64,000 nucleotides of DNA from Bdellovibrionales bacterium (GTDB lineage Bacteria; Myxococcota; XYA12-FULL-58-9; SYDY01), in assembly GCA_005801425.1 (NCBI GenBank), contig SYDY01000027.1:8444-72443 (forward strand). Reading direction: 5' to 3'. The notes under the pieces were generated by a model. That model searched no databases. It saw only the letters and a list, made by a program, of their open reading frames with translations, and had not been told where the DNA came from. Position numbers and translations under genes: made by a program. The number at the start of each line of letters is the position of its first letter. Positions within the stretch are counted from its first letter, which is position 1. This document shows, piece after piece, positions 3,624 to 53,138 of the stretch.

Positions 3624-4484
3624 ATGGCAGCGATAGAATTACACCGGCGAAATCCTGTGAATATTATCGCATTGGCAGAATCGAAACCGACAGATTTTGC
3701 ACAATCGTTGCTAGACCTTTATTTGCCTGCAAGAACCCGTGTGGATCTGAGTGCATACGAATCGAAAGAAGCATTAAAGCAAACTCATCTGGGATGTTGG
3801 AATTTTACGTTTCAATGGCGCGATGGATCTCCAAGGCAAATGGGCAGTGTGGAAATCAAGTCGCTTGGAAACAAGATTACTTTTTCTGTTGAAGCCGAGG
3901 GCTTTGACATTCTCCGAGATATTTATCAGCTCTCAGATGGCTCAGTGGAGTTCCATATTGAGATGACGCAATATCCTCAAGAGGAGCGTGGTCAAGGCTA
4001 TGGCCAACAATTGCGGGTCAATGAAATACAATGGGTTTGTTTGCAGAGTAAACATCCCGATAGTGCCATTTACAGCCAATCAGTACGTTTTAAGTATGCA
4101 GAAGCGCCTCCAGGTCAATTTGTATGGCGAAAATCACTGGAGTTTGATGGAGGTGCGAAGCATAGAATCTCGGGATTTTATAAAAAGTGGGTGACAAGAA
4201 ATATGGAACGATGGTCGTATGCGACCCATATTTCAGAGCGTAAAATTCGCAGCATTTTACCCAAAGAAATGCAGCATCCATGGTCACTGGATGGATGTGT
4301 TCTTCCTGGTTCCTTGGGTAGGCATTTAAAGAAGATGGCAGAATTGGAAGGCTATCCTGGCAAAGACGTTCTTGCATGGGCGTTTTGGAACAGTGATGTT
4401 CGCAAAGGTGATCCACTTTGTGGCAAGGTGCTGGGTTGGTCAGGCATTCGATATGTCAATCGACCGTGGAACGGTCCTATTTAG
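3624..4484 (+). CDS. Uncharacterised protein, paralog 4 of 4 (GNAT-like motif)
   Basis: ORF 3621..4484. The ATG at 3624 is preceded by AAAGGA 7 nt upstream. Motifs [32 protein letters not shown] and [12 protein letters not shown]. Begins MAAIELH like paralog 3 (MAAIDFH). Confidence 0.6.
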
Positions 4485-5995: not shown

Positions 5996-6081
5996 TTTTT
6001 TGTCCTTGGCTGTACCCCCACCGCTCGCTTTGCGAGCAACTCCCCCTCGCTGACGCGAAGTGGAGTGCGTGAGGATGGAAA

Positions 6082-8739
6082 TTAAGCAATACGATCCAAT
6101 GCACGGGTCAGTTGTTGCATACGTTCGACACACGCCGCAATTTGTGCATTTTTTTCTGCAACGATCTCTTCGGGTGCACGGGCCACAAAATCGGCGTTAC
6201 TAAGCTGCTTGTCAATTTTTTCGTGGTCCTTTTGTACTTTGACCAATTCTTTGCGCAACCGATCGGATTCAGCGGCGAAATCCACAAGGCCTTCAAGAGG
6301 GACACGCACTTCCGCGTGAGGAAGCACTTCGGTGGCGGTGCGCTTGGGCAAACTGAGATCGGATGTCAGTGGATTGAGCGATGCTTTGCCCAAGGCTTCA
6401 ATGGCACTCTGATGTATTTTCAAGAGGGAAAATACGGCATCGTTGGTTTGTATGTAGGCGTTTACTTTATCTTTTGGGGATACTGTAAACTCCGCACGAA
6501 TGCGGCGAATAGCCGTAATCACGCTTTTGACGCATTCGATGTTTTCATACTCTTTGGTATTTTGCACAAGGCGCGGTTCAGGATAGCGCGCTTGCATCAC
6601 CGAGCCTTCGGTATTGGGAAGTGTTTGCCAGATCTCCTCGCTTAAAAACGGCATGACCGGATGCATCATGCGAGCAAGAGAATCAAAGATCTCAAGCAAG
6701 GTTTGTTGGACCAGCGATTTGTTGGCGCCGGAGGTTTCGCCATAGAGCGATGTTTTGGCAAGCTCTAAATACCAGTCGCAAAAGTCATCCCAAATGAATG
6801 CATACAGGGCCGAAGCGGCATCGTTAAATCGGTACGTCTCAAATGCGGCGCGCATGGCGACGATGGTGTGATCACGTTTCGATAAGATCCATTCGCGATA
6901 GGCAGCGGTTTCGGCATCCACCACACCATCATTTGCATCGGCGCGCTCTGCGGTGTTTTGCAATGAAAAACGAAATGCCTGCCAGATCTTGTTGCAAAAT
7001 TTGCTGTAACCCTCGGCACGGCTTTCATCCCAGCGTACGTCACGGCCTTGGCCTGCAAAGGCTATCATCGTGAAGCGAAATGCATCGCAACCGTATTTTT
7101 CGATCATCACCAAAGGATCGACCACGTTCCCTTTGGTTTTGGACATTTTTTCGCCCTTGGCATCGCGAATAAGCGCATGAATGTACACATCCGCAAAAGG
7201 CACATGGCCCATGAAGTGGATGCCAAACATCATCATGCGCGCAACCCAGAAAAAGATGATGTCAAAGCCTGTGGTGAGCACCGCGGTGGGGTACCAACGT
7301 TTGAGGTCCGGTGTTTTCGCAGGCCATCCCATGGTTGAAAATGCCCAAAGGGCCGAGCTGAACCAGGTATCGAGAATATCGGGATCGCGTGTGATGTTTG
7401 TGCTGCTGCAACCTGGGCATGCGGTAGGATCTTCGCGGGTAACAATTTCTTGCTGGCAATTCTGACAATACCACGCAGGAATTTGGTGGCCCCACCAAAG
7501 CTGACGCGAGACGCACCAATCTTTGATATTGCGGAGCCACGCATAATACGTATTTTCCCAGTGGGATGGCACAAATTTTGTGGTTCCGTTTTCGACGGCT
7601 GCAAGGGCAGGGCCTGCGAGGGCCCGTGCATTCACGTACCATTGTTTGGAGATCATGGGTTCTGCGATGGTATTGGAACGCTCGGATCGACCCACATTCA
7701 TCATGTGATCTTGGCTGCCACGATCAAGGCCCAATTCTGCGATGGCTTCTTTGACCGCAATGCGTGCTTTTTCTCGCGTAAGGCCTTCAAAGCGGCCTCC
7801 CACGGCATTGACTGTCGCATCGGGGTTGAACATATTGATCAAGGGCAAGTGGTGGCGTTTGGCCACCTCAAAGTCGTTGAAATCATGGGCAGGGGTTAGT
7901 TTGACAGCGCCTGTTCCAAATGCAGGATCGACCAAAATTGCATCGGCGATGATGGGAATTTCACGTCCGTTCAGCGGATGTGTCACCGTTTTTCCGATGA
8001 ATATTTTGTAACGTAAATCATCAGGATGCACAGCAATGCCGGTATCGGCCAGCATGGTTTCGGGTCTGGTGGTTGCAACGACGATTTCTTTGATATCATC
8101 GGTGGGGTTCGTGAGTGGGTATGCAAAGCTCCAGAGCTCACCTTTTACATTTTCTTCGTGCAATACTTCGAGGTCGGACAAGACCGTTTGGGCCACAGGG
8201 TCCCAATTGACAAGGCGTTCTGCGCGGTAGAGCAATCCTTCTTCGTACAAGCGCACAAACACTTCGCGTACTGCGGCCGAAAGACCTTCATCCATGGTGA
8301 AGCGCTGGCGCGACCAATCGCAACTGACACCCAGCGTACGCAACTGACCGATGATGTTGCTTTCGGCTTCGTTTTTAAATGCCCAAGCGCGCTTTAAAAA
8401 TTCTTCTCGGCCCAAATCAAATCGGTTGGTGCCTTCTTCGCGAAATTTTCGTTCAAGGACCCAGTGAACCGCGATGCTGGCATGATCGCATCCGGGGATC
8501 CAAACGACATTTTTACCAATCATACGATGGTAGCGCGCCATGGTATCTTGGAGCGTGTTGTTGAGCGCATGACCCATATGCAAGGAGCCCGTGACGTTGG
8601 GCGGGGGGATCACCATGCTGAACGATTCACCGGGTGCCTCGGGGTTGCCTTTGAAGAAACCTTGTGCTTCCCAGTGGTTGTAATAGCGTTTGCGTGCGGC
8701 CTCGGCGTCGTAATGCTTGGGTGTTTCGGCTGCGCTCAT
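6082..8739 (-). CDS. valS: Valine--tRNA ligase
   Basis: 895-aa ORF with the class I aaRS HMGH motif (SLHMGHALN) and a KMSKT-type motif ([13 protein letters not shown]). The start is probably the Met at 8739 ([11 protein letters not shown]...); the alternative is the ORF's first ATG at 8769. Confidence 0.9.
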
Positions 8740-41623: not shown

Positions 41624-43615
41624 ATGTTTCGGCAGACACCAGCGCAGTGGACCGTGCGCGGTATGCGACAACGGCTTGGCATTGCAGGTGCTTTTATTGG
41701 GATTTGTTTTTTAATCCTGATCGGGCGCTTGTATTTGTTACAAATCGTTCGTGGCGACGAATTGACCAACCAAGGGCAACGCAACTTTGTACAGCGCGCG
41801 CGTATTCAACATGATCGTGGGATTGTGTATGATCGCAACGGCCATATTTTAGCCGACAATCGCCCATCGCTTGATGTGCAAGTGACCAGTGCATTTTTAG
41901 GCCGTGGTCGCGAAGGTGAAGCCACGTTGCAACGTCTTGCACAGCTTCTCGATCTTGAAGAGAATGTTTATAAAACTGCCGTAAAAACCCACCGTCAAAA
42001 TAAAGGGCTTGAGCTGTTTCGCTCGTTTATTGTCGCGCGCGATTTAAGCCCCGACCAAATTGATGCCATCGAAACACAACGCGCTTTGTTTCAATTGGAT
42101 GGCGTTGAAGTGGTGGTGGGCCGTAGGCGTTTTTATCCTTATGGTAAAGTTGCGGCCCATGTTTTGGGCTTTGTAAATGAAATCGATCCGCAAGCACTGG
42201 CGCAAGAGCGTGCACGGGGCAATCCGCAGCGATACATGGCGGGTGATGCGACAGGACGTTTTGGGATTGAACGATCGTTTGAGTCGTATTTGCGCGGACA
42301 GGATGGTGTTGAAAAAGTTGTTGTAGACGCCAAAGGACGGCGCCAAGAAGAGTCTTTGGTTGCAGCGCTCTTAGGCGAAAAACGACGCATTGTGCCCGTA
42401 CCTGGTGATAATTTATATCTTACGATCGACATTGAATTGCAAAAGGCCGCAGAAGCCGCTTTCTTTGGGCGTTCAGGCAGTGCCATCGCCATGGATCCCA
42501 ACACGGGTGAAGTGCTCGCCATGCTGTCGTTTCCTGCCTTTGATCCCAATTTGGTGGGTGAAAAAGTAGATGTCGATGTCAAGCGTGCGCTTGATAATGA
42601 TCCTCTCAAGCCATGGATCAACCGCACCATCGCAGGCCAATATGTGCCGGGCTCTACATTTAAAGTTGTTGGCGCTCTGGCGGGATTGAACTCTCATGTT
42701 GTGAGTGCGCACGACAATATCGATTGTCGTGGTACATTTCACATGGGTCGTCACGTGTGGCGTTGCCACAAAGATGAAGGCCATGGTCATGTCGATCTTA
42801 CGCGCTCACTTCAGGTGTCGTGCGACGTGTTTTATTACACGGTTGCGTCGCGGATGGGGATTGAGCCCCTGGCGGCCATGGGACGCATGTTGGGGCTTGG
42901 GCATCGTACGGGCATTGAGCTTGTGGGCGAAAAATCGGGTGTAGTCCCTGATGAAGCGTACCATGATAAGTACGACCGTTTAAGCGGTGGTTATCAACGC
43001 GGCATGGTGATCAATGATGTGATCGGTCAAGGCGCTGTGCTGGTGACGCCGATCCAACTGGCGCGCGCCTATGCCGCCATTGCCAATGGTGGACGTGTTC
43101 TTAAACCGCAAATTGTACACCATGTTGAAACGGCTGATTTTCGTTTGACACGGCGTGGGTTGTGGGAATCGGGCGGCGCCATCGGCGAAGATGTCATCGG
43201 TACACCGGCTTCCACCGTACGGGTTTTCGAGCCTGAGCTTGTCAATCAGATGAGTGTTCCTGCCAGCGAATTGCGTGCAGTGCTTGATGGCTTGGAAGCC
43301 GTGATGCAACCAGGCGGTACAGGCTACAGCAATCGATCAAAACTTGTGACGATGGGTGGTAAAACAGGAACGGCACAGGTGGTGCAGCTTGGAAAAAAAC
43401 GACTCGATGTTGAAGACATGGATTATTTCACCCGCGATCATGCGTGGTTTGTGGGATATGCGCCGACTGAACATCCAGAAATTGTGGTGACCGTGCTCAA
43501 TGAACACTCAGGCCATGGCGGTAGTCAATCGGCGCCCATTGCAACGGCAATTATTGATGCATTTTTTACGTTGAAGGCCGCACGCCTTGCGGCTGCCGCA
43601 GGAGATGAACCGTGA
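41624..43615 (+). CDS. mrdA: Penicillin-binding protein 2 (peptidoglycan D,D-transpeptidase)
   Basis: SxxK (GSTFKVV), SxN (SCD) and KTG (KTGTAQ) motifs, with an N-terminal TM anchor. Confidence 0.9.
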   Translation: MFRQTPAQWTVRGMRQRLGIAGAFIGICFLILIGRLYLLQIVRGDELTNQGQRNFVQRARIQHDRGIVYDRNGHILADNRPSLDVQVTSAFLGRGREGEATLQRLAQLLDLEENVYKTAVKTHRQNKGLELFRSFIVARDLSPDQIDAIETQRALFQLDGVEVVVGRRRFYPYGKVAAHVLGFVNEIDPQALAQERARGNPQRYMAGDATGRFGIERSFESYLRGQDGVEKVVVDAKGRRQEESLVAALLGEKRRIVPVPGDNLYLTIDIELQKAAEAAFFGRSGSAIAMDPNTGEVLAMLSFPAFDPNLVGEKVDVDVKRALDNDPLKPWINRTIAGQYVPGSTFKVVGALAGLNSHVVSAHDNIDCRGTFHMGRHVWRCHKDEGHGHVDLTRSLQVSCDVFYYTVASRMGIEPLAAMGRMLGLGHRTGIELVGEKSGVVPDEAYHDKYDRLSGGYQRGMVINDVIGQGAVLVTPIQLARAYAAIANGGRVLKPQIVHHVETADFRLTRRGLWESGGAIGEDVIGTPASTVRVFEPELVNQMSVPASELRAVLDGLEAVMQPGGTGYSNRSKLVTMGGKTGTAQVVQLGKKRLDVEDMDYFTRDHAWFVGYAPTEHPEIVVTVLNEHSGHGGSQSAPIATAIIDAFFTLKAARLAAAAGDEP

Positions 43616-45246
43616 AACGTTCGTGGTTTGGGCTCGCGGAAATTCATTGGGGTCTTATTGCCGTCACGTGCTGTATCATCGCTTTGGGTGTGTACAACTT
43701 GCATTCGGCTGCGGCTGCACATGCGCCTGATTTGTATATGACCCAATTGAGTTGGGCGGGTGCCGGTGCGCTTGGTGTGATTGTGTTGATGATGGTGGAT
43801 TACCGTTTTTCAGGGACGGTGGCCTACATCTTTTATGCCATTGCTTGTGTGTTGCTGGCCATGGTGTTGGTTCATGGTCGCATTGTGAGTGGATCACAAC
43901 GTTGGCTTGCCATTGGGCCGATCTTGTTTCAGCCCAGTGAAATTGCAAAACTTGCAACTCTATGTTGTGTGGCACGCTATTTTTCCCATCGCATACAACC
44001 CGAAGGTTACACGTTGGGATGGATTGTGCGTCCATTAAACATCTCTCGCCCGCTCGCTGGGATTGCGGCGTTGGCGATGGCCTGGAATAATCCATGGCTT
44101 GCCGATCCTGTTCAGAAACTCGCGCTTCGCGTGCAAGAAGGTATTGATCCAGCAGCCGTTACAGTGCCCACGGAAGAGCTGTGGTGGTTTCGTGGTGTGT
44201 GGGTTTTTTTAATCGCGCTTTGTTCAACGCTCGCGGTGCTCGCCATTCTTCGCATTAAAAAAAATCGTGAGTTGCTAGACCCATGGCCGCCTGGCCGTGC
44301 GCGTTTGTGGTTGATTTTAACAGGTGTCCTGACCGCCGCGTTGGTTGGGTGTTTGGCCTATCAATGGCAAACACCGTTTATTCGCGATCCTGTTGGTACG
44401 CTCTTGCAGTGGCTCATTCAGATTGTCGTTGTGTCTGAAGAGCCTTCTCCCTACGCATGGCTTGGGCTTGCACTGCGATTGGGATTTTCGCTTGTCTTGA
44501 TTCTTTACTTGTTTTTGGCTGTGCACACGTCGATACGTTTTAAAGGTTCACGTATCGATTTGTTGGTCGCTCCCCTGGATATTTTGGCGCTGCCCACGGC
44601 CCTGGTGCTCGTTCAGCCTGATTTGGGCACAGCAGGGATCATCGGTCTGATTGGGTTTAGCATTGTTTTGATTGCAGGGATCAGGGCACGTTCTTTAATT
44701 TCTCTTGGAATTGCTTCTGCATTTCTTGCGTATATCGGCTGGTTTGGTGTGCTTAAAGAATATCAAAAGCAGCGTATTCTTACGTTTATTGCCCCCGAAG
44801 AAGACACCATGGGTTCAGGTTGGAATGCCATTCAATCGATGATTGCTGTTGGATCGGGACGATGGCTTGGCAAAGGCCACATGGAAGGCACGCAAACCCA
44901 GCTTTCATTTTTGCCGGAGCAACATACCGATTTTGCGTTCAGTGTATGGTCTGAAGAACAGGGTTTTGTGGGCTGTGTGCTTGTCCTTTGTTTGTATCTT
45001 GTTTTTTTGGGGATGGCCTTATCGATTGCGAGCAGTGCCCGTGATCATTACGGTACGTTGCTTGCCACAGGTGTTGCAGCCATGATCGCGTGGCAAGTCT
45101 TGATCAACGTCGGGATGGTGATCGGTGCGTTCCCTGTGGTTGGGATCACGCTGCCTATGTTTTCTTACGGCGGTTCAAGCATGCTTACTATTTTGGCAGG
45201 TATCGGCTTGCTTCTTAGTATCCACGGGCGGCGAAAAGCGGCGTAA
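43612..45246 (+). CDS. mrdB: SEDS-family peptidoglycan glycosyltransferase RodA (FtsW/RodA/SpoVE), with a ~150-aa insertion
   Basis: Start overlaps the mrdA stop. C-terminal SEDS motifs are present (…PMFSYGGSSML…). At 544 aa it is longer than the typical ~370 aa because of an internal inserted segment. Confidence 0.85.
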   Translation: MKRSWFGLAEIHWGLIAVTCCIIALGVYNLHSAAAAHAPDLYMTQLSWAGAGALGVIVLMMVDYRFSGTVAYIFYAIACVLLAMVLVHGRIVSGSQRWLAIGPILFQPSEIAKLATLCCVARYFSHRIQPEGYTLGWIVRPLNISRPLAGIAALAMAWNNPWLADPVQKLALRVQEGIDPAAVTVPTEELWWFRGVWVFLIALCSTLAVLAILRIKKNRELLDPWPPGRARLWLILTGVLTAALVGCLAYQWQTPFIRDPVGTLLQWLIQIVVVSEEPSPYAWLGLALRLGFSLVLILYLFLAVHTSIRFKGSRIDLLVAPLDILALPTALVLVQPDLGTAGIIGLIGFSIVLIAGIRARSLISLGIASAFLAYIGWFGVLKEYQKQRILTFIAPEEDTMGSGWNAIQSMIAVGSGRWLGKGHMEGTQTQLSFLPEQHTDFAFSVWSEEQGFVGCVLVLCLYLVFLGMALSIASSARDHYGTLLATGVAAMIAWQVLINVGMVIGAFPVVGITLPMFSYGGSSMLTILAGIGLLLSIHGRRKAA

Positions 45247-45268
45247 AACACGTGGGTAGGATTGTTTT

Positions 45269-45359
45269 GTAGGGGCGGTTCGCGAACCGCCCTGTTGTTC
45301 TCAATACATTGTTCGCGCCAATACGTTTGCCTAACGGGCCGTTCACGAACGGCCCCTAC
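45269..45359. repeat. Composite palindromic REP/MITE-like element
   Basis: GTAGGGGCGGTTCGCGAACCGCCC, a 43-nt spacer, then GGGCCGTTCACGAACGGCCCCTAC. It lies between rodA and a truncated nucleotidyltransferase ORF. Confidence 0.85.
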
Positions 45360-45390
45360 AGGATTTTGATATGATGCGTTTTTTTCGCGC

Positions 45391-45606
45391 GTGAAAGGAA
45401 CATCACGTCCCAACTCTGATTTGGATATGGTGGTCTTTTCTGGGCCTCAGCAGAAGACTCAAGTGTCCAACCTGAAAGAGGCATTCGAAGAAAGCAATCT
45501 GCCTTTTAGAGTGGACGTATTTGTGTGGGATGAAATCCCACACAGCTTTCAAGAGAATATTGCTCTGGAACACAAAGTATTGCAGCAGGATATTTCCAAA
45601 AAATAG
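45391..45606 (+). pseudogene. Truncated minimal nucleotidyltransferase (Pol-beta/MNT-like) remnant
   Basis: 71-aa ORF starting at a GTG. It contains (K)GTSRPNSDLDMVVF, which resembles the G[ST]x(9-13)DxD nucleotidyltransferase motif, but lacks the usual N-terminal ~25 residues. The repeat element sits immediately upstream in the same frame. Confidence 0.4.
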
Positions 45607-45633
45607 AGTTCATTCTCTAGTACAATCTATCCT

Positions 45634-48075
45634 ATGGGCGCATTCTTTCGTTTCGCTTTTTTATTGCTCGTTGGGTGTAGTGCTTGCACGAAAGCAGCAG
45701 CTCCGCGTGCTCCTTCTGAGTGTGACATTAGCGAAGTGCTTGTCGGTGATTTATGTCGTAAAGCTTGCAGCACAAACGGCGATTGCGACGGCACTGTATG
45801 CAAAGACTATCAGGGTTTAAATGCATGTAGCGACGATGTTGCGTGCTTAGATACACAAGCATTCGATGGCGCAAAGTGTCGCGATCTCTGCAATGACGAC
45901 AGCACATGCGATGGCAACATGTGCAAAGTGGTGGATCAATCTTCCGTGAAAGTATGCAGCGATGACATGGCCGAAATTGGTGGTGTTGGCTGTGGTTATG
46001 TTGACAATGATGCTGATGGATATGGTGACAGTTGCGATGCATGTCCAGGTGAAATTAGAATTTGGGGTATCGGAAATACGCGAACAGGATGTGCGGATTC
46101 TGATTTAGATTGCATATGCAATGATGAAGACAGTTGTGTGGATGGGGTCACTGATGGTGACCAGGATGGCACACCCGATGCCTGCGATATTTGCCCCAGC
46201 GACAATACCGCATATGCAGGGCATTACAATTCGGCATGTCTGATTGACAGTATGCAGTATTGCCTGCGTACTGGATTGGTTGATGTACCTCAGGAATTAA
46301 GTCAGCCGACCACATGTCTTCCTTCCCCAGAAGATTCCATGAAGTCACAAACCATTGCGGGTTCGCAATATCATGCCGACAGTGATTGTGATGGGGTGGA
46401 TGGTGTTAAGTCACAATCCCTTTTTGTGCGGTGTGATGCTGACGCAATAGTTGCTGATGGAACTTTAGATAAGCCATTCCAAACCATATCAAAGGCCCTT
46501 GCGTGCATTGTGAATTCTTCTTTAAGCGGATGCAGTAATGTTGCTAATGTTATTGGGGTTATCAGCACATTCAATGCGACGCACGATCCAGATATTAAAA
46601 TCAATGTGATGGTGAGTGCAGAAAATGTGAATGGGGATCCTTGCACGTATGCAGAATCTCTCGATGTGAGCAATGCGGTTGTCAATGTTTTTGGTGCCTA
46701 TCGTCAGGATTTCCATGTGCGTTTGCCAGGAAGTCCAAGTGTTGTAGCGCCCACAACAACAGGCCCAGCACTTTTTGGAAATGGCCAATATACCGATGTT
46801 CTTTTTGATGGATTCAAGTTTGTTGCTCAAGTGGGCAATGTTTCCGCTCCAACATCTGTGGGTATTGTTATAGGCAACGCGAGAGCCTTCAAACTAAAAA
46901 GTAGCGAGGTTCAGTCGGGGAAAGGATATGATAATGCCACACTTTCCGCACCAGTTGCGCCGTCACCATCAACCGTAAAAGGATGTAATGGCGGAATAGC
47001 CACGTGCCAGGGGCAACAAAACGATAACGATGCAACATACACCAGCGCAGGTGGGCAGAATCTGAACACCGGTAGTTGTCGCCATGATTCAGGTATTAAT
47101 GGAGGTGAGGGCAAGGCCACCCGCCCAAGCGGTGGCTGTAGCGGCGGTTCATCCAAGCAGAATTTCGCTGCAGGTAATACTTCACAAGTATCATTGGAGA
47201 TTGCGGGTCAACCGGGCACTGGTGGAACCGCTGCTAACCAAGGTTGTACCAGCGACAGTGGTAATTGTTGTGGTTGTGCGAGGCTATATTCTGGAGGTGG
47301 TGGTGGTAGCGGGAGTACTCCTGCAGGTTCCAGCATCAACCTAAGTACATATTGGAATTTCCTGTCACAGATATCATTGGCAACACCCAGTGCTCTCAAG
47401 GCAGTCAATGGCGCCAATGGCCTCAATGGTCTCCATGGTGGGTCAGGCGGTGGTGGCGCAGGGGGTGGTCTGTGGCAATGTGAAAACGACGATAATTATG
47501 TCGCCGTGGGTGGATCTGCAGGAGGCGCGGGTGGAACTGGCGGTACAGGCGGTATCGGTGGTATCGGAGGTGGCCATAGCATTGCGTTATGGATCCATCA
47601 GAGCAGCAGTAGCAATGCTGTCGAATTGAGCTGTAATCGCTTAAACGTGCAATCAGGTGGCATTGGGCAAAGTGGTGGTTCTGGTGGCTTGGGCGCTGCG
47701 GGTGGTTCGGGTGGTGAGACTAAATACTGTGATATTGATGAGACGGATATTACCTCTGGTGCTGGGGGAAATGGTGGCCAAGGGGGGCGAGGTGCACCAG
47801 GTCAAGGAGGCAGCGGTGGTGCATCGGTGCCGATTTTATTCACCACGGATGGCGTAAACAGTGCAGGACCCTACTGTATCGAACCAAATATCTATTGCAT
47901 GATTTCAACACAAACCCCAGCGATGGGTGGTGCTGGTGGTGCGGGCTACACGACATCAACATCAACGACGTTGTTGGATCCAACCAAAAATGGATTGAAG
48001 GGCTTAGATGGAGTGATAAACAAAGAATGCGCATGCAATGTGAGTTCTTCGCCGGTGAGCTGCAGCTGCAATTGA
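45634..48075 (+). CDS. Large Cys-rich lipoprotein with thrombospondin-type-3-like Ca-binding repeats, a beta-helix-like core and a Gly-rich C-terminal region
   Basis: Signal plus lipobox (LLVGCSAC). Repeats of the form DNDADGYGDSCDACP and DGDQDGTPDACDICPSD. A long GGxGGxGG Gly-rich tract and a Cys-rich C-terminus (KECACN…CSCN). Confidence 0.6.
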   Translation: MGAFFRFAFLLLVGCSACTKAAAPRAPSECDISEVLVGDLCRKACSTNGDCDGTVCKDYQGLNACSDDVACLDTQAFDGAKCRDLCNDDSTCDGNMCKVVDQSSVKVCSDDMAEIGGVGCGYVDNDADGYGDSCDACPGEIRIWGIGNTRTGCADSDLDCICNDEDSCVDGVTDGDQDGTPDACDICPSDNTAYAGHYNSACLIDSMQYCLRTGLVDVPQELSQPTTCLPSPEDSMKSQTIAGSQYHADSDCDGVDGVKSQSLFVRCDADAIVADGTLDKPFQTISKALACIVNSSLSGCSNVANVIGVISTFNATHDPDIKINVMVSAENVNGDPCTYAESLDVSNAVVNVFGAYRQDFHVRLPGSPSVVAPTTTGPALFGNGQYTDVLFDGFKFVAQVGNVSAPTSVGIVIGNARAFKLKSSEVQSGKGYDNATLSAPVAPSPSTVKGCNGGIATCQGQQNDNDATYTSAGGQNLNTGSCRHDSGINGGEGKATRPSGGCSGGSSKQNFAAGNTSQVSLEIAGQPGTGGTAANQGCTSDSGNCCGCARLYSGGGGGSGSTPAGSSINLSTYWNFLSQISLATPSALKAVNGANGLNGLHGGSGGGGAGGGLWQCENDDNYVAVGGSAGGAGGTGGTGGIGGIGGGHSIALWIHQSSSSNAVELSCNRLNVQSGGIGQSGGSGGLGAAGGSGGETKYCDIDETDITSGAGGNGGQGGRGAPGQGGSGGASVPILFTTDGVNSAGPYCIEPNIYCMISTQTPAMGGAGGAGYTTSTSTTLLDPTKNGLKGLDGVINKECACNVSSSPVSCSCN

Positions 48076-48159
48076 CCCAAGCATTGCCATAGGAAATACA
48101 CACGATCCTAAAGCGTTTTTTTTCGCGATGTGTGGGACCATGTCGTGCCGATGCCGTGA

Positions 48160-48609
48160 TGTGGACAAAAAGGTGGCTCTGGAGGTGGGGGTGGTGAGGG
48201 TAAATATTCGGCTGTTGCGAATACCTGGGATTGGTACCCAGAGACCTCATATTGCCCGGCTGACGGCGTTTACATTCTTGGTGGCTTTGGGGGTAATGGT
48301 TTCAGCGGCTTTGATGGTACGCCCGGACAAGGTGGCAGTGGCGGTGCATCGTTGCCGCTCTTGATTGTTACGCCCACCCCGTTTTCTTCACATTATTGTA
48401 GTTCTCTTAACAACTGCACGAACGTTGCACAAACCGGATTGCCTGGTGCGGGCGGTGATGCCCTTTCGGGAGAGCATGGACCCAGGGGACCCAATGGCAA
48501 TCCCGGCTTAACGGGGGTTCTGGCAAAAGAATGCATTTGCAATGACCCCGGATCGGGCAATGTGTGCTGCAACTGCGATGTTGATTCGAGAAATTCTTGT
48601 GCTCAGTAA
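48160..48609 (+). pseudogene. Partial tandem duplicate of the C-terminal module of the preceding lipoprotein gene (no obvious start codon)
   Basis: The frame is open from the stop at 48157-48159. It translates as GQKGGSGGGGG…GFDGTPGQGGSGGASLPLLIVTPTP…KECICNDPGSGNVCCNCDVDSRNSCAQ, which parallels …GQGGSGGASVPILFTTDG…KECACNVSSSPVSCSCN of the upstream gene. ORF 48352..48609 is the tail of this frame. Confidence 0.4.
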
Positions 48610-48712
48610 GGCACATGGCCCTGCTGTAATTGGCCGAAGCGAACACCGAGGCCATGTCTTTGAGCTGCAGGGGGGCGGTTTCAGTAGCAATTATTATATG
48701 ACATGGTACAAT

Positions 48713-48742
48713 AAAACCGCCGTTTGTATTATTCGGTTTTCG
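48713..48742 (+). terminator. Putative rho-independent terminator
   Basis: AAAACCG stem, 14-nt loop, CGGTTTT stem, then a T-rich stretch. Located downstream of the lipoprotein/duplicate region. Confidence 0.35.
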
Positions 48743-48797
48743 ACTATTTCTGGAGGCTATCATTTCCATATTTAATGTCTCTCCAGAAATCCAGTAC

Positions 48798-49922
48798 ATG
48801 CTTTTGATCTTTGGTCTCTTTATTGTACCACGTGCACTGCAACGATACCGGTTACCCAGTGCGATTACATGTCTAGGCTTCGGTGCGCTCTTGAGCATGG
48901 GATTTGGCCTTTTTGATGGCGACCCAACAATTAAATTTTTGGCAACACTGGGCATTGTTACCATGTTCCTCTTTGCAGGGCTCGAAGTGGATTTTCACGA
49001 ACTTCGAAAAGGAAAAAAAACACTCATTGAACATCTCATCATCCAATTTGTAATGCTCATCATTGGAACCGTAGTCATTCATCAAATTACTCTTCTTGAG
49101 AGACGTCCTTCATTGCTATTTGCCTTGGCACTTTTAACACCATCCACAGGCTTCATTCTCGATTCATTAAATGATTTCAAATTAAGCGACGAAGAAAAAT
49201 TTGGGGTAAAGTCAAAAGCTATCGCGACCGAACTGATGGCATTGGGTGTTTTATTCATTACAACTCAAAGCACAGCCATAACCACGTTGGCATTTTCAAC
49301 ACTTGTGCTTGTCTTATTGGTCGTTGTGATCCCTCATGTTTTTCATATCTTCGCATGTGTGATAGCCCCCTTTGCGCCAAAAACGGAGTTTTCATTTCTC
49401 ATTATCATGGCGCTGCTATGTGCATATATTACGCGAGAACTTGGCGTTTATTATCTCGTGGGTGCATTCATCGTTGGCCTCACAGCCGTACGACTTCAAC
49501 ATGAGCTTCCTGAATTAAGCTCGACAAGTCTCATGCAAAGCGTTGGATTGTTTTCCTCATTTTTTATCCCATTCTATTTTTTCAAATCAGGCCTTCATCT
49601 AAGAAGTGAATACTTTACCTGGAGCTCAATCAAAGTTGCTATTATCGCTTTTGTCTTTGTGACTCCCATTAAAATTGGATCAGTCGCTATTTATCGCCGC
49701 TACAGACTCCTCAACTCTTGGGGTACGGGACTGCGCATCGGAAGCGCAATGACACCAACACTCGTTTTTACAATTGTCATTGCAGACATACTGCAAGAAC
49801 GGTTTAATCTTTCACCTGAACTTTTCGGTGGTCTCATTTTGTTTGCCTTAAGCAACACGGTTCTATCCGGAGTGATGACACGATTCATCATATCGTATGA
49901 AAAGTCGATGGATTTGTATTAA
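48798..49922 (+). CDS. Cation:proton antiporter family membrane protein (CPA/KefB-like transporter domain)
   Basis: 374-aa polytopic membrane protein. Local GC (~43%) is clearly below the neighbouring genes. Confidence 0.65.
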   Translation: MLLIFGLFIVPRALQRYRLPSAITCLGFGALLSMGFGLFDGDPTIKFLATLGIVTMFLFAGLEVDFHELRKGKKTLIEHLIIQFVMLIIGTVVIHQITLLERRPSLLFALALLTPSTGFILDSLNDFKLSDEEKFGVKSKAIATELMALGVLFITTQSTAITTLAFSTLVLVLLVVVIPHVFHIFACVIAPFAPKTEFSFLIIMALLCAYITRELGVYYLVGAFIVGLTAVRLQHELPELSSTSLMQSVGLFSSFFIPFYFFKSGLHLRSEYFTWSSIKVAIIAFVFVTPIKIGSVAIYRRYRLLNSWGTGLRIGSAMTPTLVFTIVIADILQERFNLSPELFGGLILFALSNTVLSGVMTRFIISYEKSMDLY

Positions 49923-50102
49923 CGCCGAGGAACCACGCCGGGTATTGCAATGTGCATTTTCGCATATCAGCTTGTCACTTCAGCGGAGATTGACCGAAAG
50001 TCTTGCGGGAAGATTTGAGCTTTTGCGTGTGCCGCATATTCTTTTGGCGTTTGCGGGTGGTACTGTGCTCGGGTGAGATTTGTGCACAAATTTTATTACC
50101 GC

Positions 50103-50432
50103 TCACACTACATGTTTCTTAATCATCTCTTCAATCTTGGCTTGATTGGCGAGTCCTACCGATTGTTCCACCGGTTTTCCGTTGCTGAACAAAATCATGG
50201 TGGGAATGGCCTGCACGGAATATTTGCTCGGCGTGTTGGGGTTTTCGTCGATGTTCATTTTGGCGATGGTCGCTTGGCCTGAAAAATTCTCTGCAACTTT
50301 TTCAAGCACGGGTGCGAGCGCACGACATGGTCCACACCAAGCGGCCCAAAAATCCACCAAGACAGGATGCTTGGCATTGAGTACTTGGGTTTGAAACTCA
50401 TCATCGGTAACGTTGATAATATTCTGGCTCAT
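50103..50432 (-). CDS. trxA: Thioredoxin
   Basis: 109 aa with the WCGPC active site. Confidence 0.9.
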   Translation of the reverse strand: MSQNIINVTDDEFQTQVLNAKHPVLVDFWAAWCGPCRALAPVLEKVAENFSGQATIAKMNIDENPNTPSKYSVQAIPTMILFSNGKPVEQSVGLANQAKIEEMIKKHVV

Positions 50433-50480
50433 GATTGCGTATTCCTTTGGGTTGTTAAAGTTCGTACATTCTATGCGGTT

Positions 50481-51209
50481 TTAAGGTAAATCCGCAATCT
50501 TTGATGGTGTTAAATCCCAGGTCATTTGAGTGGTTCCAAGTGCGCTTGCGATGCGCATAACAAACTTGGTGGTATGGGGCTCTATGACCAATTTGTCTGT
50601 GGGGTCAATCAGAGGAAAGCGGACCAAATACGCTCGGTCAAAATCCCCGAGATAGCCATAAACGGCTTTTAAATTGGCATCGATTTTGACCCGTGAAATT
50701 TGGGCGGCCTGAACGGTAATATTCTGATCCGGATTGGTGAGCGTGATGCGCCAAATGGAGTCTGCGCGATCAAGGTCGTTCCATTTGAGATCGGGTGTAT
50801 AGGCTTTGAGTAAAAACGTATGGAACGTTTCGGCGTCGCTTGAAAGATCAACCAATTCGCGGCGTGTAACCTCGCCCCCATGACCGTAGATATCGGGGAA
50901 TTTTAAACCGAATGCACGCCTAAATTGCGGGGCATGAAATGTTGATGATGCAAACAATACATTGTCGAGAACATTGTAGAGTTTGGCATGTCGTGTCCAT
51001 TGGGCGAACGTACGATCGTAATCACGATCGTCAACTTCGCTGATAGAACCGAACAGTGTAGGCGGTGGGATAGGTTTGCATGCCGAAAGGAGCGCGAGCA
51101 AGATGAAGGCAAGGGCGGTTCGCGAACCGCCCCTACAAAAAAACAGTGTGGGGGTCGTTCGTGAACGACCCTTATTTAATAAAATCAGATTTCTTAAAGA
51201 GACTCGCAT
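50481..51209 (-). CDS. Hypothetical lipoprotein
   Basis: ORF 50481..51350 overlaps pyrE upstream. The first ATG at 51209 gives MRVSLRNLILLNKGRSRTTPTLFFCRGGSRTALAFILLALLSAC (lipobox LSAC). This N-terminus is encoded by repeat units 51113-51170. Start uncertain. Confidence 0.45.
   Translation of the reverse strand: MRVSLRNLILLNKGRSRTTPTLFFCRGGSRTALAFILLALLSACKPIPPPTLFGSISEVDDRDYDRTFAQWTRHAKLYNVLDNVLFASSTFHAPQFRRAFGLKFPDIYGHGGEVTRRELVDLSSDAETFHTFLLKAYTPDLKWNDLDRADSIWRITLTNPDQNITVQAAQISRVKIDANLKAVYGYLGDFDRAYLVRFPLIDPTDKLVIEPHTTKFVMRIASALGTTQMTWDLTPSKIADLP
51113..51170. repeat. Two adjacent REP-like units (GGGCGGTTCGCGAACCGCCCCTAC, a short A-rich spacer, then GTGGGGGTCGTTCGTGAACGACCC)
   Basis: The units are arranged opposite to the composite elements elsewhere (inverted unit first). 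Located at the pyrE 3' end and the lipoprotein 5' end. Confidence 0.8.
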
Positions 51210-51750
51210 AGGGGAGACCCGTCGCACGAATGTTGTTGGCACCGTTGTCCTCTTCCCTGTCCACCAAAGCAAGTACTGCAATGGGCAGCAAGCCTTCCTC
51301 ACGCACGCGTTCGATAGCCCGCAAGGTGGAACCGCCGGTGGTGACCACATCTTCGATCACCAGGACTGGATCGCCAATTTTTAGCGCTTTTAGACCTTCG
51401 ATCCAGCGACCAGTTCCATGGCCTTTGGGCTCTTTGCGCACGATAAATGCGTGGGCTGGGGCGCCCTTTTGTTGGCTGATCACGGCTGCGGCCGCAGCCA
51501 TGGGATCGGCGCCGAGCGTAATGCCGCCAACGCCTACGATGGTTGCGCCTTCATGACGCAGTGTTTGAATGTGTTCAAAAATCAATTCACCGATCAGCAG
51601 ACATCCTTCGGCTTGAAGTGCCGTTTGTTTGCAATCGACATAAAAATCGCTGGTTTTGCCAGATGCCAAGGTAAAAGTTCCGGTACGCACCGAATATTCT
51701 TGGAGCAATTGGCGGAGTCTGTTGATTTTATCGGTATTGAAATTTGTCAT
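51172..51750 (-). CDS. pyrE: Orotate phosphoribosyltransferase
   Basis: 192 aa with the PRPP-binding motif (VLVIEDVVTTGGS). Confidence 0.9.
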   Translation of the reverse strand: MTNFNTDKINRLRQLLQEYSVRTGTFTLASGKTSDFYVDCKQTALQAEGCLLIGELIFEHIQTLRHEGATIVGVGGITLGADPMAAAAAVISQQKGAPAHAFIVRKEPKGHGTGRWIEGLKALKIGDPVLVIEDVVTTGGSTLRAIERVREEGLLPIAVLALVDREEDNGANNIRATGLPYASLFKKSDFIK

Positions 51751-51774
51751 GGACGGACACTGTAGCGGAGTTAT

Positions 51775-52353
51775 TTAACCGCGTCGACGTCGGCCGACCG
51801 CTTTTTTTGTGGGTTCGGCGACAGCAGCTGCAGCGGCCGTCGCTTTGGCCTTGGCGGCGTCTTTGATGTTTACAGGCGTACGTTTCACCACTGTTTCCAC
51901 GGGTGTTGGGCGTCGTTCAGGCAATCGACTGCCAAGACGTGGCAACGCGGCTCTGGCCAATGCGGTGGTTGAAGCATCCAGTGTTTCAACTTTTTTGTGG
52001 GAGGGGATACTTACATGGGCCACTTTGGCATCGCTCATGTCTATTTCGCCGCGCACGCGTGCACCTGGCTGGATGACGAGGCGTTCCGTTTTGATATTGC
52101 CAACAACGCGGCCCGTAGAGCCGATTTCGACCCGTTCGGCCGATTCAATATTGCCGACCAAGATCCCATGGACCACAATTTCGGATGCATCGATATCGGC
52201 TTTTACGATGCCATGTTCCTCAATGGTCACGGTTCCGCCGACTTGGATGGCTCCCTCAACACGGCCCCGAATAATGAGATCATCATCCTCGCCGACAATA
52301 TTGCCTGTGATGATGATAGATGCACCAATGACAGTGGTTTGTGCGTCAGACAT
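51775..52353 (-). CDS. Bactofilin (DUF583) family cytoskeletal protein with a basic Ala/Pro-rich C-terminal tail
   Basis: Beta-helical repeats I.G.V.G... (IITGNIVGEDDDLIIRGRVEGAIQVGGTVTI…). Confidence 0.7.
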   Translation of the reverse strand: MSDAQTTVIGASIIITGNIVGEDDDLIIRGRVEGAIQVGGTVTIEEHGIVKADIDASEIVVHGILVGNIESAERVEIGSTGRVVGNIKTERLVIQPGARVRGEIDMSDAKVAHVSIPSHKKVETLDASTTALARAALPRLGSRLPERRPTPVETVVKRTPVNIKDAAKAKATAAAAAVAEPTKKAVGRRRRG

Positions 52354-52364
52354 GGTTCGTGTCC

Positions 52365-52694
52365 TTAGTTAGAGCCCATTTCAACGTTGCCTGCGAAATA
52401 TGCACCGTCGGCGATTAAGATCCGTTTTGCTTTGGCATTGCCGATCATCCGGCACGTGCTTTCCATCTGGATACGATCGACCGCGATGATATTTCCGGTG
52501 ACCTGCCCCGCGACATGGACCTCGGGCGCTTCAATGGTGGCATCGACTTGGCCACTTTCGGCGATATCGATACGGCCCGCCATGGCTATTTTGCCTTTAA
52601 CGCGTCCTTCGACCACAATGCCGGCGCTGCCGACGATCTCGCCTTCAATCACAATATGTTCCGCAATAATTGTATCGTTTTCGGTGTGATGCAT
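52365..52694 (-). CDS. Bactofilin family protein
   Basis: ORF 52365..52769. The ATG at 52694 (MHHTENDTIIAEHIVIEGEIVG…) has AGGAGA 6 nt upstream. Confidence 0.7.
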   Translation of the reverse strand: MHHTENDTIIAEHIVIEGEIVGSAGIVVEGRVKGKIAMAGRIDIAESGQVDATIEAPEVHVAGQVTGNIIAVDRIQMESTCRMIGNAKAKRILIADGAYFAGNVEMGSN

Positions 52695-52707
52695 GTGTTC
52701 TCCTGGT

Positions 52708-53049
52708 TCATAGGCCTTCAGGCAGTTCGACATCCATGAGAAGTCGTCCCGAAAAGAGGGCGCCGTCACGGATCTCTATTTCTTGGGCAGTGATATCGCC
52801 GCGTACGGAAGCACCGGCAGCGATGGTGAGCAAATCGATGATATCCAGCGTGCCTTCAACATCGCCACCGTTGACGGTGAGGTCTTGGGCTTTGATATCG
52901 GCACCCACACGGCCTGCATCGATCACAACGCTACCGTCGGTGAGATTGATCTCACCGTCGATCTGTCCTCCGCGAACCTCAAGCGTTCCGCTTCCCGATA
53001 CACGACCTCGAATGTGGACTTGTTCCCCGATGACACAAGGGTTCGACAT
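52708..53049 (-). CDS. Bactofilin family protein
   Basis: ORF 52708..53067. The probable start is MSNPCVIGEQVHIRGRVSG. Bactofilin-type repeats. Confidence 0.65.
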   Translation of the reverse strand: MSNPCVIGEQVHIRGRVSGSGTLEVRGGQIDGEINLTDGSVVIDAGRVGADIKAQDLTVNGGDVEGTLDIIDLLTIAAGASVRGDITAQEIEIRDGALFSGRLLMDVELPEGL

Positions 53050-53138
53050 GGCGCTAGACTCCTGCATATGTATTCAAACAGTGGTTAATCGACCACCTAC
53101 ATGGAGTCAAGTTTGTCGGAAGAGGTGGTGGGGGTTAC

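Follow-up and report, generated by a model that had tools for sequence, protein, structure and literature searches.

The window analysed here, a 64,000-nt stretch of DNA, carries a complete, functional gene for an 813-aa lipoprotein and, after its stop codon, a second copy of the C-terminal module of that gene in an open frame without a usable start (Table 1). The explanation that we prefer, with a probability of about 0.6, is that this copy is a tandem paralog that was truncated recently, or a former 3' end that was displaced, and that it is not expressed.

The encoded protein had been described beforehand as a Cys-rich lipoprotein with a beta-helix-like middle, glycine-rich tracts and a KECACN...CSCN tail, and its translation, motifs and structural model bear this out. 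It contains 133 Gly and 48 Cys, 30 of them within the first 300 aa; the N-terminal region is Cys-rich as described, with a count lower than the "about 35" initially given. The N-terminus shows one basic residue, a hydrophobic core and then L-V-G-C. The lipobox LLVG-C15 fits the pattern [LVI][ASTVI][GAS]C; in the mature protein, Cys15 would come first and carry the lipid. The homologs P0005, P0007 and P0009 share this ...GC(T/S)K junction at the N-terminus. Both tandem Cys-rich modules are also found in the paralog P0003, and the AlphaFold model contains short beta-hairpins at aa 34-66 (pLDDT 76-84). The motif DxDxDGxxDxCDxCP, which occurs twice in this Cys/Asp-rich region, looks like the thrombospondin type 3 repeat (PF02412) or the MopE-type motif (PF11617), the latter being a "putative metal-binding motif" of myxobacterial Cys-rich proteins. 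The short motif was thus correctly noticed, but its reading as thrombospondin type 3 or OmpA-like calcium-binding repeats is not backed by Pfam: TSP_3 gives no match on the whole protein and only 6.9 bits (E = 6.7) on the excised region, against a cut-off of 25, and PF11617 has no match in the 813-aa protein. PF11617 is passed by the distant family members L015, L017, L022 and P0011 (33-58 bits, cut-off 27).

The conserved core may be pictured as a beta-helix-like domain that runs on into glycine-rich rungs, with a small Cys-knotted tail at the end. It starts at the DSDCDGVDG motif, in which D249 and C252-G257 are invariant in the family alignment A2. Judging from the model, aa 257-450 probably form a right-handed parallel beta-helix. 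As in beta-helix surface proteins of the pectin-lyase fold (DUF1565, PF07602), there is an N-cap-like motif, FV...G.D..DGS..PF.TI..AL, and the model is beta-rich. When this region was compared with the PDB by Foldseek, nearly all top matches were beta-helix proteins (tailspikes, pectin methylesterase, alginate lyase). However, none was significant (best E 0.14-0.22), nor was any sequence match; a DUF1565 match in the relative P0009 is sub-threshold. The sequence DKPFQTISKALA is present in the protein, as are the long GGxGGx tracts and the tail. Across the family the consensus of the Gly-rich unit is GGAGGxGGxGGxGGxGGxSIAL, and the strands inside aa 613-737 are modelled at pLDDT 63-81. Long GGxGGx tracts are also known from the PGRS domains of mycobacterial PE_PGRS proteins (PMC9436101, PMC10216338). 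In contrast to those, the window protein has no PE domain, its Gly tracts alternate with hydrophobic strands, and it carries 48 Cys and a lipobox. Taken together, we infer a Sec/Lol-exported, disulfide-rich surface lipoprotein, probably stabilised by calcium, which most likely serves a Bdellovibrionota/Myxococcota-like bacterium as an adhesin or as a glycan-binding or glycan-cleaving surface protein.

By its sequence, the protein is a member of a rare, unnamed, Cys/Gly-rich multi-copy family. This DxxCDGVDG / beta-helix / Gly-rich family is defined in the present work and has no solved or named relative. The family search returned twelve matches among 1.84 billion cluster representatives, and use of DSDCDGVDG as a scan pattern added 15 further family loci; the family alignments are A1, A2 and A4. 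In every member the core extends from the DxxCDGVDG motif as far as the C-terminus; the 813-aa protein has this core, with GGxGGx...S[IV][AG]L units. At least three further paralogs (P0003, P0004 and P0005) exist within the same sample. These full-length homologs (791-962 aa) have the Gly-rich region and Cys tail of the window protein at their C-termini, in line with a complete main gene. The locus of P0003 and that of a P0004-like paralog contain the window's own REP-like element and have equal GC content. Paralogs also lie side by side at other loci: L017 has two full-length paralogs head-to-tail, 12 nt apart, and L014 has a divergent pair.

Table 1. Features of the lipoprotein gene and of the downstream copy (positions in the window)
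Feature	Position	Strand	Remarks
Complete lipoprotein gene, 813 aa	45634..48075	+	ATG start, TGA stop; called as gene in source records
Signal peptide with lipobox (MGAFFRFAFLLLVG-C15)	45634..45678	+	Read from translation
Two tandem Cys-rich modules, ~40 aa each, aa 28-110	45715..45963	+	Pattern C..G..CR..C....CDG..CK......CSDD, from translation
First DxDxDGxxDxCDxCP motif (DNDADGYGDSCDACP), aa 124-138	46003..46047	+	Regex match
Second DxDxDGxxDxCDxCP motif (DGDQDGTPDACDICP), aa 174-188	46153..46197	+	Regex match
DSDCDGVDG motif, aa 249-257	46378..46404	+	Marks start of family-wide conserved core, ~460-565 aa
Beta-rich domain, aa 257-450	46402..46983	+	Confidently modelled; pLDDT 81-94 over most of span
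Gly-rich repeat region, aa 553-760	47290..47913	+	(GGx)n units, each followed by short strand S-[IV]-[AGP]-[LI]
Parent C-terminal module, aa 674-813	47653..48072	+	Last Gly-rich unit and Cys tail KECACN...CSCN; part duplicated downstream
In-frame 3-nt polymorphism	47970..47972	+	Absent in ERZ27257035: one Leu fewer in TTLLDP, 812-aa product
Spacer between gene and copy, ~85 nt	48076..48159	+	In-frame stops 48109, 48157; T8 tract 48116-48123
Start-less copy of C-terminal module	48160..48609	+	149 open codons and TAA (48607-48609); frame of main gene; no signal peptide
SNP C>A	48257	+	Copy's frame CCG to CAG, Pro to Gln, just after conserved Cys of ETSYCP
SNP C>T	48453	+	Copy's frame GGC to GGT, synonymous

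The copy is homologous to aa 672-813 of the main protein, with 47% identity over 130 aligned sites (44% over 108 aa in BLASTP). The Smith-Waterman score of copy and parent is 215, against 53 +/- 10 for shuffled sequences (z = 17), and z is still 10.7 when shuffling is confined to 12-residue blocks. The similarity is not a matter of glycine repeats only, as it persists with the glycine columns removed: at non-glycine columns the copy is 38% identical to its parent and 13-23% identical to the paralogs. Moreover, a family profile built from seven members, the window protein left out, matches the copy at profile positions 108-221 of 224 (36.5 bits), in frame 1 only and from nt 48163, and the whole copy can be aligned with the final ~130 aa of each family member. 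On these alignments, the copy is a true C-terminal module of the family. In 96-98% of bootstraps the copy and its parent are each other's nearest neighbours, which places the duplication within this lineage. At the DNA level, homology starts at 47664 in the parent and at 48162 in the copy, with ~61% identity in the first 200 nt; no exact match exceeds 10 nt, and the best patch reaches 79% over 47 nt. The patches encoding PGQGGSGGAS, at 47791-47837 and 48316-48362, are 525 nt apart.

The preliminary description of a module copy in direct orientation and without a usable start is correct. Its 5' edge coincides exactly with a repeat-unit boundary. The earliest ATG, GTG or TTG in its frame is TTG 48352, downstream of conserved sequence, and the copy lacks a functional start that could cover its conserved part. 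The main-ORF frame has its first stop at 48073, followed by the two in the spacer. Apart from the T8 tract of the spacer there is an A5 tract at 48167-48171; a check for such tracts as a means of restoring the frame had been proposed, but no single +/-1 change can link the main ORF with the copy. In none of its frames is the spacer homologous to the gene or the family, and it has neither a coding signature nor a terminator-like site. The copy is absent from the gene calls of every source record, and between it and the next gene the sole call is a 71-aa ORF without relatives that overlaps the copy's end. The lack of a Shine-Dalgarno sequence at the copy is uninformative, because the window genes checked (lipoprotein, rodA and Na/H exchanger) have no clear one either. 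Just upstream lies a 5'-truncated nucleotidyltransferase fragment, and in the nearest RodA relatives no lipoprotein gene follows rodA; the intergenic region is a "dumping ground". Neither a recombinase nor a reverse transcriptase is among the gene calls within about 10 kb on either side, and no immunity-like gene is called nearby.

By its divergence from the parent, the duplication is old (pS 0.59, pN 0.43, dS about 1.15). Nevertheless, the copy does not look decayed, a possibility that had been raised. It has no stop in 149 codons and no frameshift, and every homology anchor is still in one frame although at least 5 indels separate it from the parent. In simulations of unconstrained decay, 149 codons stayed free of stops with a probability of 0.05 at d = 0.2 and of 0.006 at d = 0.5. 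Copy and parent differ most at third codon positions, and frame 1 of the copy keeps a coding signature (GC at positions 1/2/3 0.56/0.60/0.45, versus 0.50/0.62/0.43 in the parent). It also retains 23 of the 27 family-invariant columns. Relative-rate counts of 11/16, 11/7 and 11/10 indicate that it evolves no faster than the intact gene, with low power at ~20 informative sites. Neither the disabling mutations nor the faster rate of a pseudogene fragment are seen, and the sole defect is the missing start and 5' part. Unconstrained decay since the duplication is unlikely. Because stops, frameshifts and a rate excess are absent and most invariant columns are kept in spite of the old age, the copy was coding sequence for nearly all its history.

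The copy is not an assembly artefact, since the identical sequence was obtained from two samples and two assemblers: region 41634-52075 is the same in ENA ERZ27257033 (MEGAHIT, a different sample) and in Logan SRR8894381 (a different assembler). The source contig comes from a MEGAHIT metagenome assembly, and the region has many low-complexity GGN repeats, where a strain variant or paralog might be wrongly joined to the gene. However, the two copies share no exact match above 10 nt, so k-mer graphs cannot confuse them, and a third assembly, ERZ27257035, has the same arrangement of gene and copy with three small differences. The probability of such a joining error is negligible. Over 22.4 kb these three differences are the only ones, and all lie in the tail and the copy. 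They distinguish two population haplotypes with the same arrangement; the 812-aa and 813-aa forms of the protein are P0001 and P0013. Neither the 3-nt indel nor the two SNPs match the other copy. A single imported recombination tract would explain why the three differences are clustered.

To the observed homology, boundaries, missing start, absence of decay, reproducible arrangement and family context we add an order of events, a recent truncation and a lack of expression that we infer. The 149-codon frame would be the surviving 3' end of a second gene copy, which diverged for a long time as a working coding sequence and then lost everything 5' of its last Gly-rich unit, i.e., promoter, start, signal peptide and ~2 kb of coding sequence. 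The loss may have occurred by deletion or by insertion of a new 3' end in front (C-terminal displacement). The remnant probably rides on the 3' end of the lipoprotein transcript, untranslated and without a switching mechanism, and it would look intact only because much less time has passed since the truncation than since the duplication. No intact second paralog was found at this locus in a relative, and for that reason the ancestral state of the locus is a reconstruction. Remnants of tandem-paralog turnover resemble the copy in several respects: they are fragments homologous to an adjacent intact gene, lack start, signal peptide and promoter, and belong here to a multi-copy family with tandem pairs elsewhere, at a variable intergenic site next to a truncated nucleotidyltransferase. 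In contrast to such remnants, the window fragment shows none of the usual signs of decay though it is very diverged from its neighbour. This points either to a gene that worked for a long time and was truncated very recently or to selection that still acts. Zero disabling mutations and the lack of a rate excess are equally expected of a still-selected sequence. The module-boundary 5' edge and the shared frame would be coincidences under random deletion (the frame alone has a 1-in-3 chance), and a plain remnant does not predict that all three assembly differences fall in the tail and the copy.

The tandem copy that was initially read as a partial duplication is real. As a structure, it is indistinguishable from a whole-gene tandem duplication followed by 5' deletion, and the copy's conservation favours the whole-gene event. 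A tandem duplication of only the 3' 0.5 kb, non-functional and decaying ever since, is consistent with the direct arrangement, with the missing start codon and with the absence of homology in the spacer or anywhere 5' of 48160; the Gly-rich repeat at which the copy begins is a plausible site for slippage or illegitimate recombination. However, dS exceeds 1 and ~47% of the nucleotides in aligned codons differ, so that an unconstrained copy would be expected to have stops and frameshifting indels; the simulated chance of no stop is 0.003-0.05. The preserved frame in the face of the indels, the retained invariant columns, the unaccelerated rate and the predominance of third-position changes likewise make this origin quite unlikely. 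It is very unlikely that the copy is expressed alone as a small protein, either from TTG 48352 (85 aa) or from ATG 48128 with a frame shift (~165 aa). The second route would use the neighbouring frame 2, open from 48059 to 48362 with ATG at 48128 and 48140, and a -1 ribosomal slip or an A5-to-A6 change at GAC-AAA-AAG (48161-48169), and the A5 tract is situated exactly where a one-base shift enters the copy's frame. But C-AAA-AAG is not the canonical slippery heptamer X-XXY-YYZ, neither product would have a signal peptide although the parent module is the exported, Cys-rich part, and the 64 conserved codons upstream of TTG 48352 would be left unexplained. Also, no gene is called there in any record and no similar protein occurs in a 5.8-billion-cluster collection. 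The predicted peptides would span MCGTMSCRCRDVDKK-GGSGG or begin at MPLLIVTP.

Continuing selection would fit a reserve C-terminal cassette that is occasionally recombined into the expressed gene to give the surface protein a changed tail. Under this possibility, which we consider unlikely, it would make sense that the copy is constrained though start-less, that it lies immediately 3' of the gene in direct orientation and shared frame, and that its 5' edge falls exactly on a module boundary. Crossing over between the two PGQGGSGGAS patches would yield an in-frame chimera, and the sole variation between two assemblies sits in the tail and the copy. However, the short matches described above offer no recombination substrate, and about half of the best-patch codons differ at synonymous sites, so that no recent conversion has taken place. 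There is one cassette only, the gene calls nearby include neither a recombinase nor a reverse transcriptase nor an immunity-like gene, and the haplotypes share one arrangement with 0/3 variants matching the other copy. At 13 other family loci, no additional C-terminal module lies beyond the ORF, in a test that does find the window's own copy (120 aa, E = 0.002). The same observations, together with the absence of a single slip that restores the frame, speak against the early suggestion of a switchable cassette.

A reserve cassette of this kind would be comparable to silent cassettes such as pilS and vls, to orphan cdiA-CT modules or to the C-terminal tips of rhs genes, which are conserved though displaced. 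In antigenic variation by silent cassettes (pilE/pilS, vlsE, tprK, msp2), promoterless and start-less partial copies of a surface-protein gene also lie near the expressed gene. In those systems, however, there are several cassettes with highly conserved flanks and visible gene-conversion tracts, in contrast to the one copy with ~61% nucleotide identity, no conserved flanks and no conversion signal seen here. A diversity-generating retroelement was considered and rejected; these have two near-identical repeats that differ at adenines and a reverse transcriptase gene nearby, whereas the repeats here are ~61% identical with indels and the genes called within +/-10 kb do not include a reverse transcriptase. 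Another parallel is C-terminal displacement in rhs genes and orphan cdiA-CT/rhs-CT modules (Jackson et al. 2009, PMC2935791; Poole et al. 2011, PMC3150448), in which a start-less 3' tip lies directly downstream in the same orientation, starts at a module boundary and is conserved though detached; the reported evolutionary conservation of dissociated rhs tips (Jackson et al. 2009, PMC2935791) also lends some weight to the reserve cassette. In Rhs/CDI systems, however, the tips are polymorphic toxin domains that are not related to one another, each with a cognate immunity gene downstream, and a tip carries a core fragment nearly identical to the main gene as recombination substrate. In the window, homology between the tips covers their full length (47%), neither of them is followed by a small gene, the longest match is that of 10 nt, and the arrangement is not recurrent in the family. 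There is, at a distinctly low probability, a bolder reading in which the start-less module is a selected, detached alternative tail, 47970-48609 is a local diversification hot spot in the population, and exchange proceeds without long identical flanks. If true, this would be a new example of surface-protein tail swapping outside toxin systems, and it would extend C-terminal displacement from Rhs/CDI toxins to non-toxin beta-helix/Gly-rich lipoproteins of Bdellovibrionota/Myxococcota-like bacteria.

For annotation, the complete 813-aa gene should be kept apart from the downstream frame, neither fused with it nor lengthened into it. A gene-remnant flag, in place of a protein call, is what the downstream frame should receive. 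If the recently truncated tandem paralog is the right explanation, the remnant would be a dated snapshot of gene-family turnover, in which a paralog long under selection was truncated only recently. The rare, unnamed Cys/Gly-rich lipoprotein family to which it belongs is now defined and is multi-copy in this organism, and it offers a defined target for structural and functional work on predatory or social bacteria.

The lipoprotein gene is followed, beyond an 85-nt spacer, by a second version of its C-terminal module, as had been described from the sequence. The frame of the main gene has stops at 48073, 48109 and 48157, after which 149 codons are open. The first ATG, GTG or TTG in this frame is the TTG at 48352, downstream of 64 conserved codons, so the copy lacks a plausible start. 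In Smith-Waterman comparison with the parent module (aa 672-813 of the lipoprotein) it scores 215, versus 53 +/- 10 for shuffled sequences (z = 17; z = 10.7 with block shuffling), and BLASTP aligns the two at 44% identity over 108 aa. In a five-sequence alignment, copy and parent are 47% identical (38% at non-glycine columns, which takes the similarity beyond low-complexity Gly), versus 13-23% with the paralogs, and they are mutually nearest neighbours in 96-98% of bootstraps. A profile of seven family members, with the window protein left out, hits the copy in a single frame, starting at nt 48163, over profile positions 108-221 of 224. On this evidence, the copy is neither a small gene with a functional start of its own nor a case of glycine-only similarity. 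In the spacer, none of the frames shows homology, and a coding signature is lacking. An apparent continuation of the homology into it in frame 2 ('PSIAI...MSC' versus 'HSIAL...LSC') was rejected, as the family profile is silent there even at E-values up to 100. Used as a query, the 149-aa copy has no match in the protein collection or in the JGI metagenome contigs; the stretch YSAVANTWDWYPETSYCPADGVYILGGFGGNGFSGFDGTPGQGGSGGASLPLLIVTPTPFSSHYCSSLNNCTNVAQTGLPGAGGDALSGEHGPR is unique to it.

Features of the lipoprotein locus and its surroundings (nt positions refer to the window, aa positions to the 813-aa protein)
Feature	Position	Strand	Remark
Lipoprotein ORF	45634-48075	+	813 aa
Two Cys-rich modules	aa 28-110		about 40 aa each; translation
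DxDxDGxxDxCDxCP motif	aa 124 and aa 174		exact, twice; translation
DSDCDGVDG motif	aa 249		translation
DKPFQTISKALA			present in main protein; translation
GGxGGx tracts	aa 553-760		long; translation
Tail KECACNVSSSPVSCSCN	C-terminus		main protein; translation
Start-less copy	48160-48609	+	same frame as main gene; open for 149 codons to TAA 48607
3-nt in-frame deletion	47970-47972		tail of main gene; ERZ27257035 vs window
C>A	48257		Pro to Gln in copy frame; ERZ27257035 vs window
C>T	48453		synonymous in copy frame; ERZ27257035 vs window
REP-like palindrome	8915, 8962, 16352, 29834, 29881, 37851, 37915, 45274, 45337, 51114, 55413		also on contig loci L002, L003, L009, L011
RodA gene	43612-45246	+	544 aa
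Nucleotidyltransferase fragment	45391-45606	+	71 aa, 5′-truncated
GCG-T7-CGCG	45376-45389
GCG-T8-CGCG	48113-48127
Inverted repeat	48701-48715 / 48819-48833		15 nt, 93% complementary
Three bactofilin genes	~51770-53050	-	L001 12139-13413

The translation of the main gene begins with the lipobox MGAFFRFAFLLLVG followed by C, as read from the 813-aa sequence. The N-terminal part, thought to hold about 35 Cys, is indeed Cys-rich, with 30 Cys within residues 1-300; the whole protein has 48, along with 133 Gly. The protein has zero matches in Pfam and NCBIfam, and the excised motif region scores 6.9 bits against TSP_3, below the cut-off of 25. Therefore, 'TSP3-like' stands as a description of the exact motif found twice, not as a family assignment. 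From its lipobox, 48 Cys and Asp-rich motifs, the main product looks like a surface protein that is exported, held by disulfide bonds and probably stabilised by metal. AlphaFold models aa 257-450 confidently and parts of aa 590-740 with moderate confidence. In a Foldseek comparison with the PDB, nearly all top matches are right-handed beta-helix proteins, none of them significant (best E-values 0.14-0.22), and searching PDB sequences with a profile yielded nothing but artificial Gly linkers and further unrelated chains with low scores. With its beta-helix-like core and Gly-rich rungs, the protein may be a rigid adhesin or carry a domain that binds or cleaves polysaccharides. Such a function is hypothetical, since neither a catalytic motif nor a significant structural neighbour was found for the main protein.

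The family is small: among 1.84 billion cluster representatives, all scanned with HMMER, 12 proteins only were recovered, and another 15 loci came from scanning JGI metagenome contigs for a family motif. The contig scan used one family alignment (A2), another (A1) being too diverse for scanning. All members share a core that starts at DxxCDGVDG, reaches the C-terminus and is about 460-565 aa long, whereas the N-termini are variable; several distant members pass PF11617, a MopE-type metal-binding motif. A word search with the whole protein returned the query alone, glycine words dominating, and a search with the mid-region matched only the 305-aa fragment P0002. This closest relative of the main gene, on a 1097-nt contig (ERZ27280223 k141_456808, locus L004), is 50-52% identical to aa 216-485. 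It diverges from the main gene about as much as the copy does and does not overlap with the copy; P0002 could be the intact counterpart of a lost paralog in a related organism. Three full-length relatives, P0003 (795 aa, 38% identity), P0004 (791 aa) and P0005 (962 aa), share the Gly-rich unit and Cys tail at their C-termini, which indicates that the 813-aa gene is complete without the downstream piece.

The sample of the window organism is also the source of P0003, P0004 and P0005. A REP-like palindrome, GGCGGTTCGCGAACCGCC, 18 nt long, occurs at 11 window sites with at most 3 mismatches, versus 0.02 expected; the sites often form intergenic pairs, 47-64 nt apart. Exact copies of it, together with the same GC content, are present at the P0003 locus and at a P0004-like paralog locus. 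The exact copies suggest that these two loci belong to the same genome as the window or a very close one. Given the shared sample, the palindromes and the GC content, the window organism probably has several family paralogs.

The copy had also been suspected of decay. Over 134 codons aligned with the parent, pS is 0.59 and pN 0.43 (dS about 1.15), with conservation lowest at the third codon position. Free drift since the duplication should have left stops and frameshifts in the copy; in simulation, such drift leaves zero stops with a probability of 0.05 at d = 0.2 and of 0.006 at d = 0.5. All homology anchors nevertheless lie in one frame despite at least 5 indels, and the copy retains 23 of the 27 columns that are invariant in four complete genes. 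Rate counts against three outgroups (11/16, 11/7 and 11/10) show no acceleration, and the copy agrees with the parent module in codon-usage score and GC1/2/3 pattern. Taken together, the open frame, the retained columns, the steady rate and the codon signature indicate that the copy was coding and under selection for almost its whole history, so the term 'decayed' is not supported.

We favor, with a probability of about 0.6, a reading in which this site formerly held a second gene copy that recently lost its 5′ part and is now an untranslated remnant. That copy may have been a whole tandem paralog, as on the metagenome contig L017, where two full-length family genes (9-3194 and 3207-6644) lie head-to-tail, 12 nt apart and 39% identical over about 700 aa; another metagenome contig, L014, carries a divergent pair (1916-4531, minus strand; 4863-7751, plus strand). 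Alternatively, it may have been the former 3′ end of the gene, displaced downstream by an inserted related end. In either case, the second copy would have diverged under selection before the recent loss of its 5′ part, and the lipoprotein transcript would carry the remnant, untranslated, at its 3′ end.

An assembly artefact is extremely improbable, as three independent assemblies, reached from protein look-ups, show the same arrangement. Two of them are identical to the window: ENA ERZ27257033 (349-kb contig) over 41634-52075 and the Logan assembly of SRR8894381 over 41634-50445. That the copy arose as a partial, 3′-only duplicate and never functioned is quite unlikely, being hard to reconcile with selection for almost all of its history. 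A cassette exchanged with the expressed gene, the 'switchable' option of the preliminary description, is unlikely too. The DNA identity of copy and parent is about 61%, with homology setting in at 47664/48162; the best patch is 79% identical over 47 nt, and the longest exact match, 10 nt, leaves no usable identity. The best-conserved patch has synonymous differences in about half of its codons, so recent gene conversion has not taken place. Moreover, there is a single cassette, and an extra C-terminal module is found at 0 of 13 other family loci by a test that does detect the one in the window. A diversity-generating retroelement and an invertible or shufflon-type switch were considered and rejected, since no recombinase or reverse transcriptase gene is called within 10 kb and the inverted repeats are weak, none being strong. 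Among described phenomena, the displacement of rhs C-termini (PMC2935791) comes closest to one in which the remnant would be functional. Of the four features that define it, three proved absent here when tested.

Expression of the copy would need either a joined frame or a start of its own. A check had been suggested for a slippery or homopolymeric tract near 48076-48160 that could restore the frame. No single slip joins the main ORF to the copy, at T8 (48116) or at A5 (48167), because frame 1 has the stops at 48073, 48109 and 48157 and frame 0 has one at 48090; a compensating pair of shifts alone would work. A ribosomal bypass of the stop, leading from AAT-TGA to an AAT further on, fails because the only such AAT (48095) is in the wrong frame. 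Reading TGA as a sense codon would still leave the TAA at 48109, and TGA also ends the PBP2 gene. Independent expression is conceivable from the ATG at 48128, if a one-base gain in A5, or else slippage by -1 at GAC-AAA-AAG, connected it to the copy. Yet neither this product nor the 85-aa product from TTG 48352 has a signal peptide, while the parent module is exported and cysteine-rich, and a start at the TTG would leave the 64 conserved codons upstream unexplained. The source records call no gene at the copy, and the protein collection holds nothing similar to it. We therefore regard independent expression as very improbable. In or near the spacer, a search for known RNA elements found nothing relevant, with no terminator in the spacer and no tRNA nearby. 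The observation itself is confirmed, and its earlier interpretation is partly supported.

A third assembly, ENA ERZ27257035 (253-kb contig; L026), differs from the window at only 3 sites over 22.4 kb (35634-58075). All three lie within 484 nt spanning the tail of the main gene and the copy (47970-48453). This clustering would be accounted for by the import of a single recombination tract whose donor is about 0.6% diverged, or else by locally relaxed or diversifying evolution, three variants being too few to separate the two.

The surroundings do not offer an orthologous locus for comparison: at the loci of the nearest RodA relatives (L005 and L006; a Bdellovibrionales MAG and a Myxococcota MAG, 48-49% identity) there is no lipoprotein gene after rodA. 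RodA is much longer in the window than the typical ~370 aa. Its residues 1-542 are matched in both relatives, which makes the extra length a feature of the lineage. The bactofilin genes, in a row downstream of the mreBCD-pbp2-rodA cluster, make up with it a compact neighbourhood of cell-shape genes. The lipoprotein gene is closely preceded by a nucleotidyltransferase fragment, uncalled in the source records, which matches positions 24-87 of 93 of the Polbeta/NTP_transf_2 profile; this indicates that the intergenic region collects gene debris. The GCG-T7-CGCG and GCG-T8-CGCG sites, the only two of their kind in 64 kb, each lie just 5′ of a start-less fragment, and the pair brackets the nucleotidyltransferase fragment and the complete lipoprotein gene. 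As ends of a repeated element they were not supported, their flanks having no significant similarity. An inverted repeat straddling the Na+/H+ exchanger start codon at 48798 may be a regulatory hairpin or operator.

As a remnant, the copy is an ordinary kind of object, left next to a gene from a surface-protein family with rapid turnover. Two details are unusual: the remnant is without decay, and the sole population variation in 22 kb falls on the remnant and on the tail of the intact gene.
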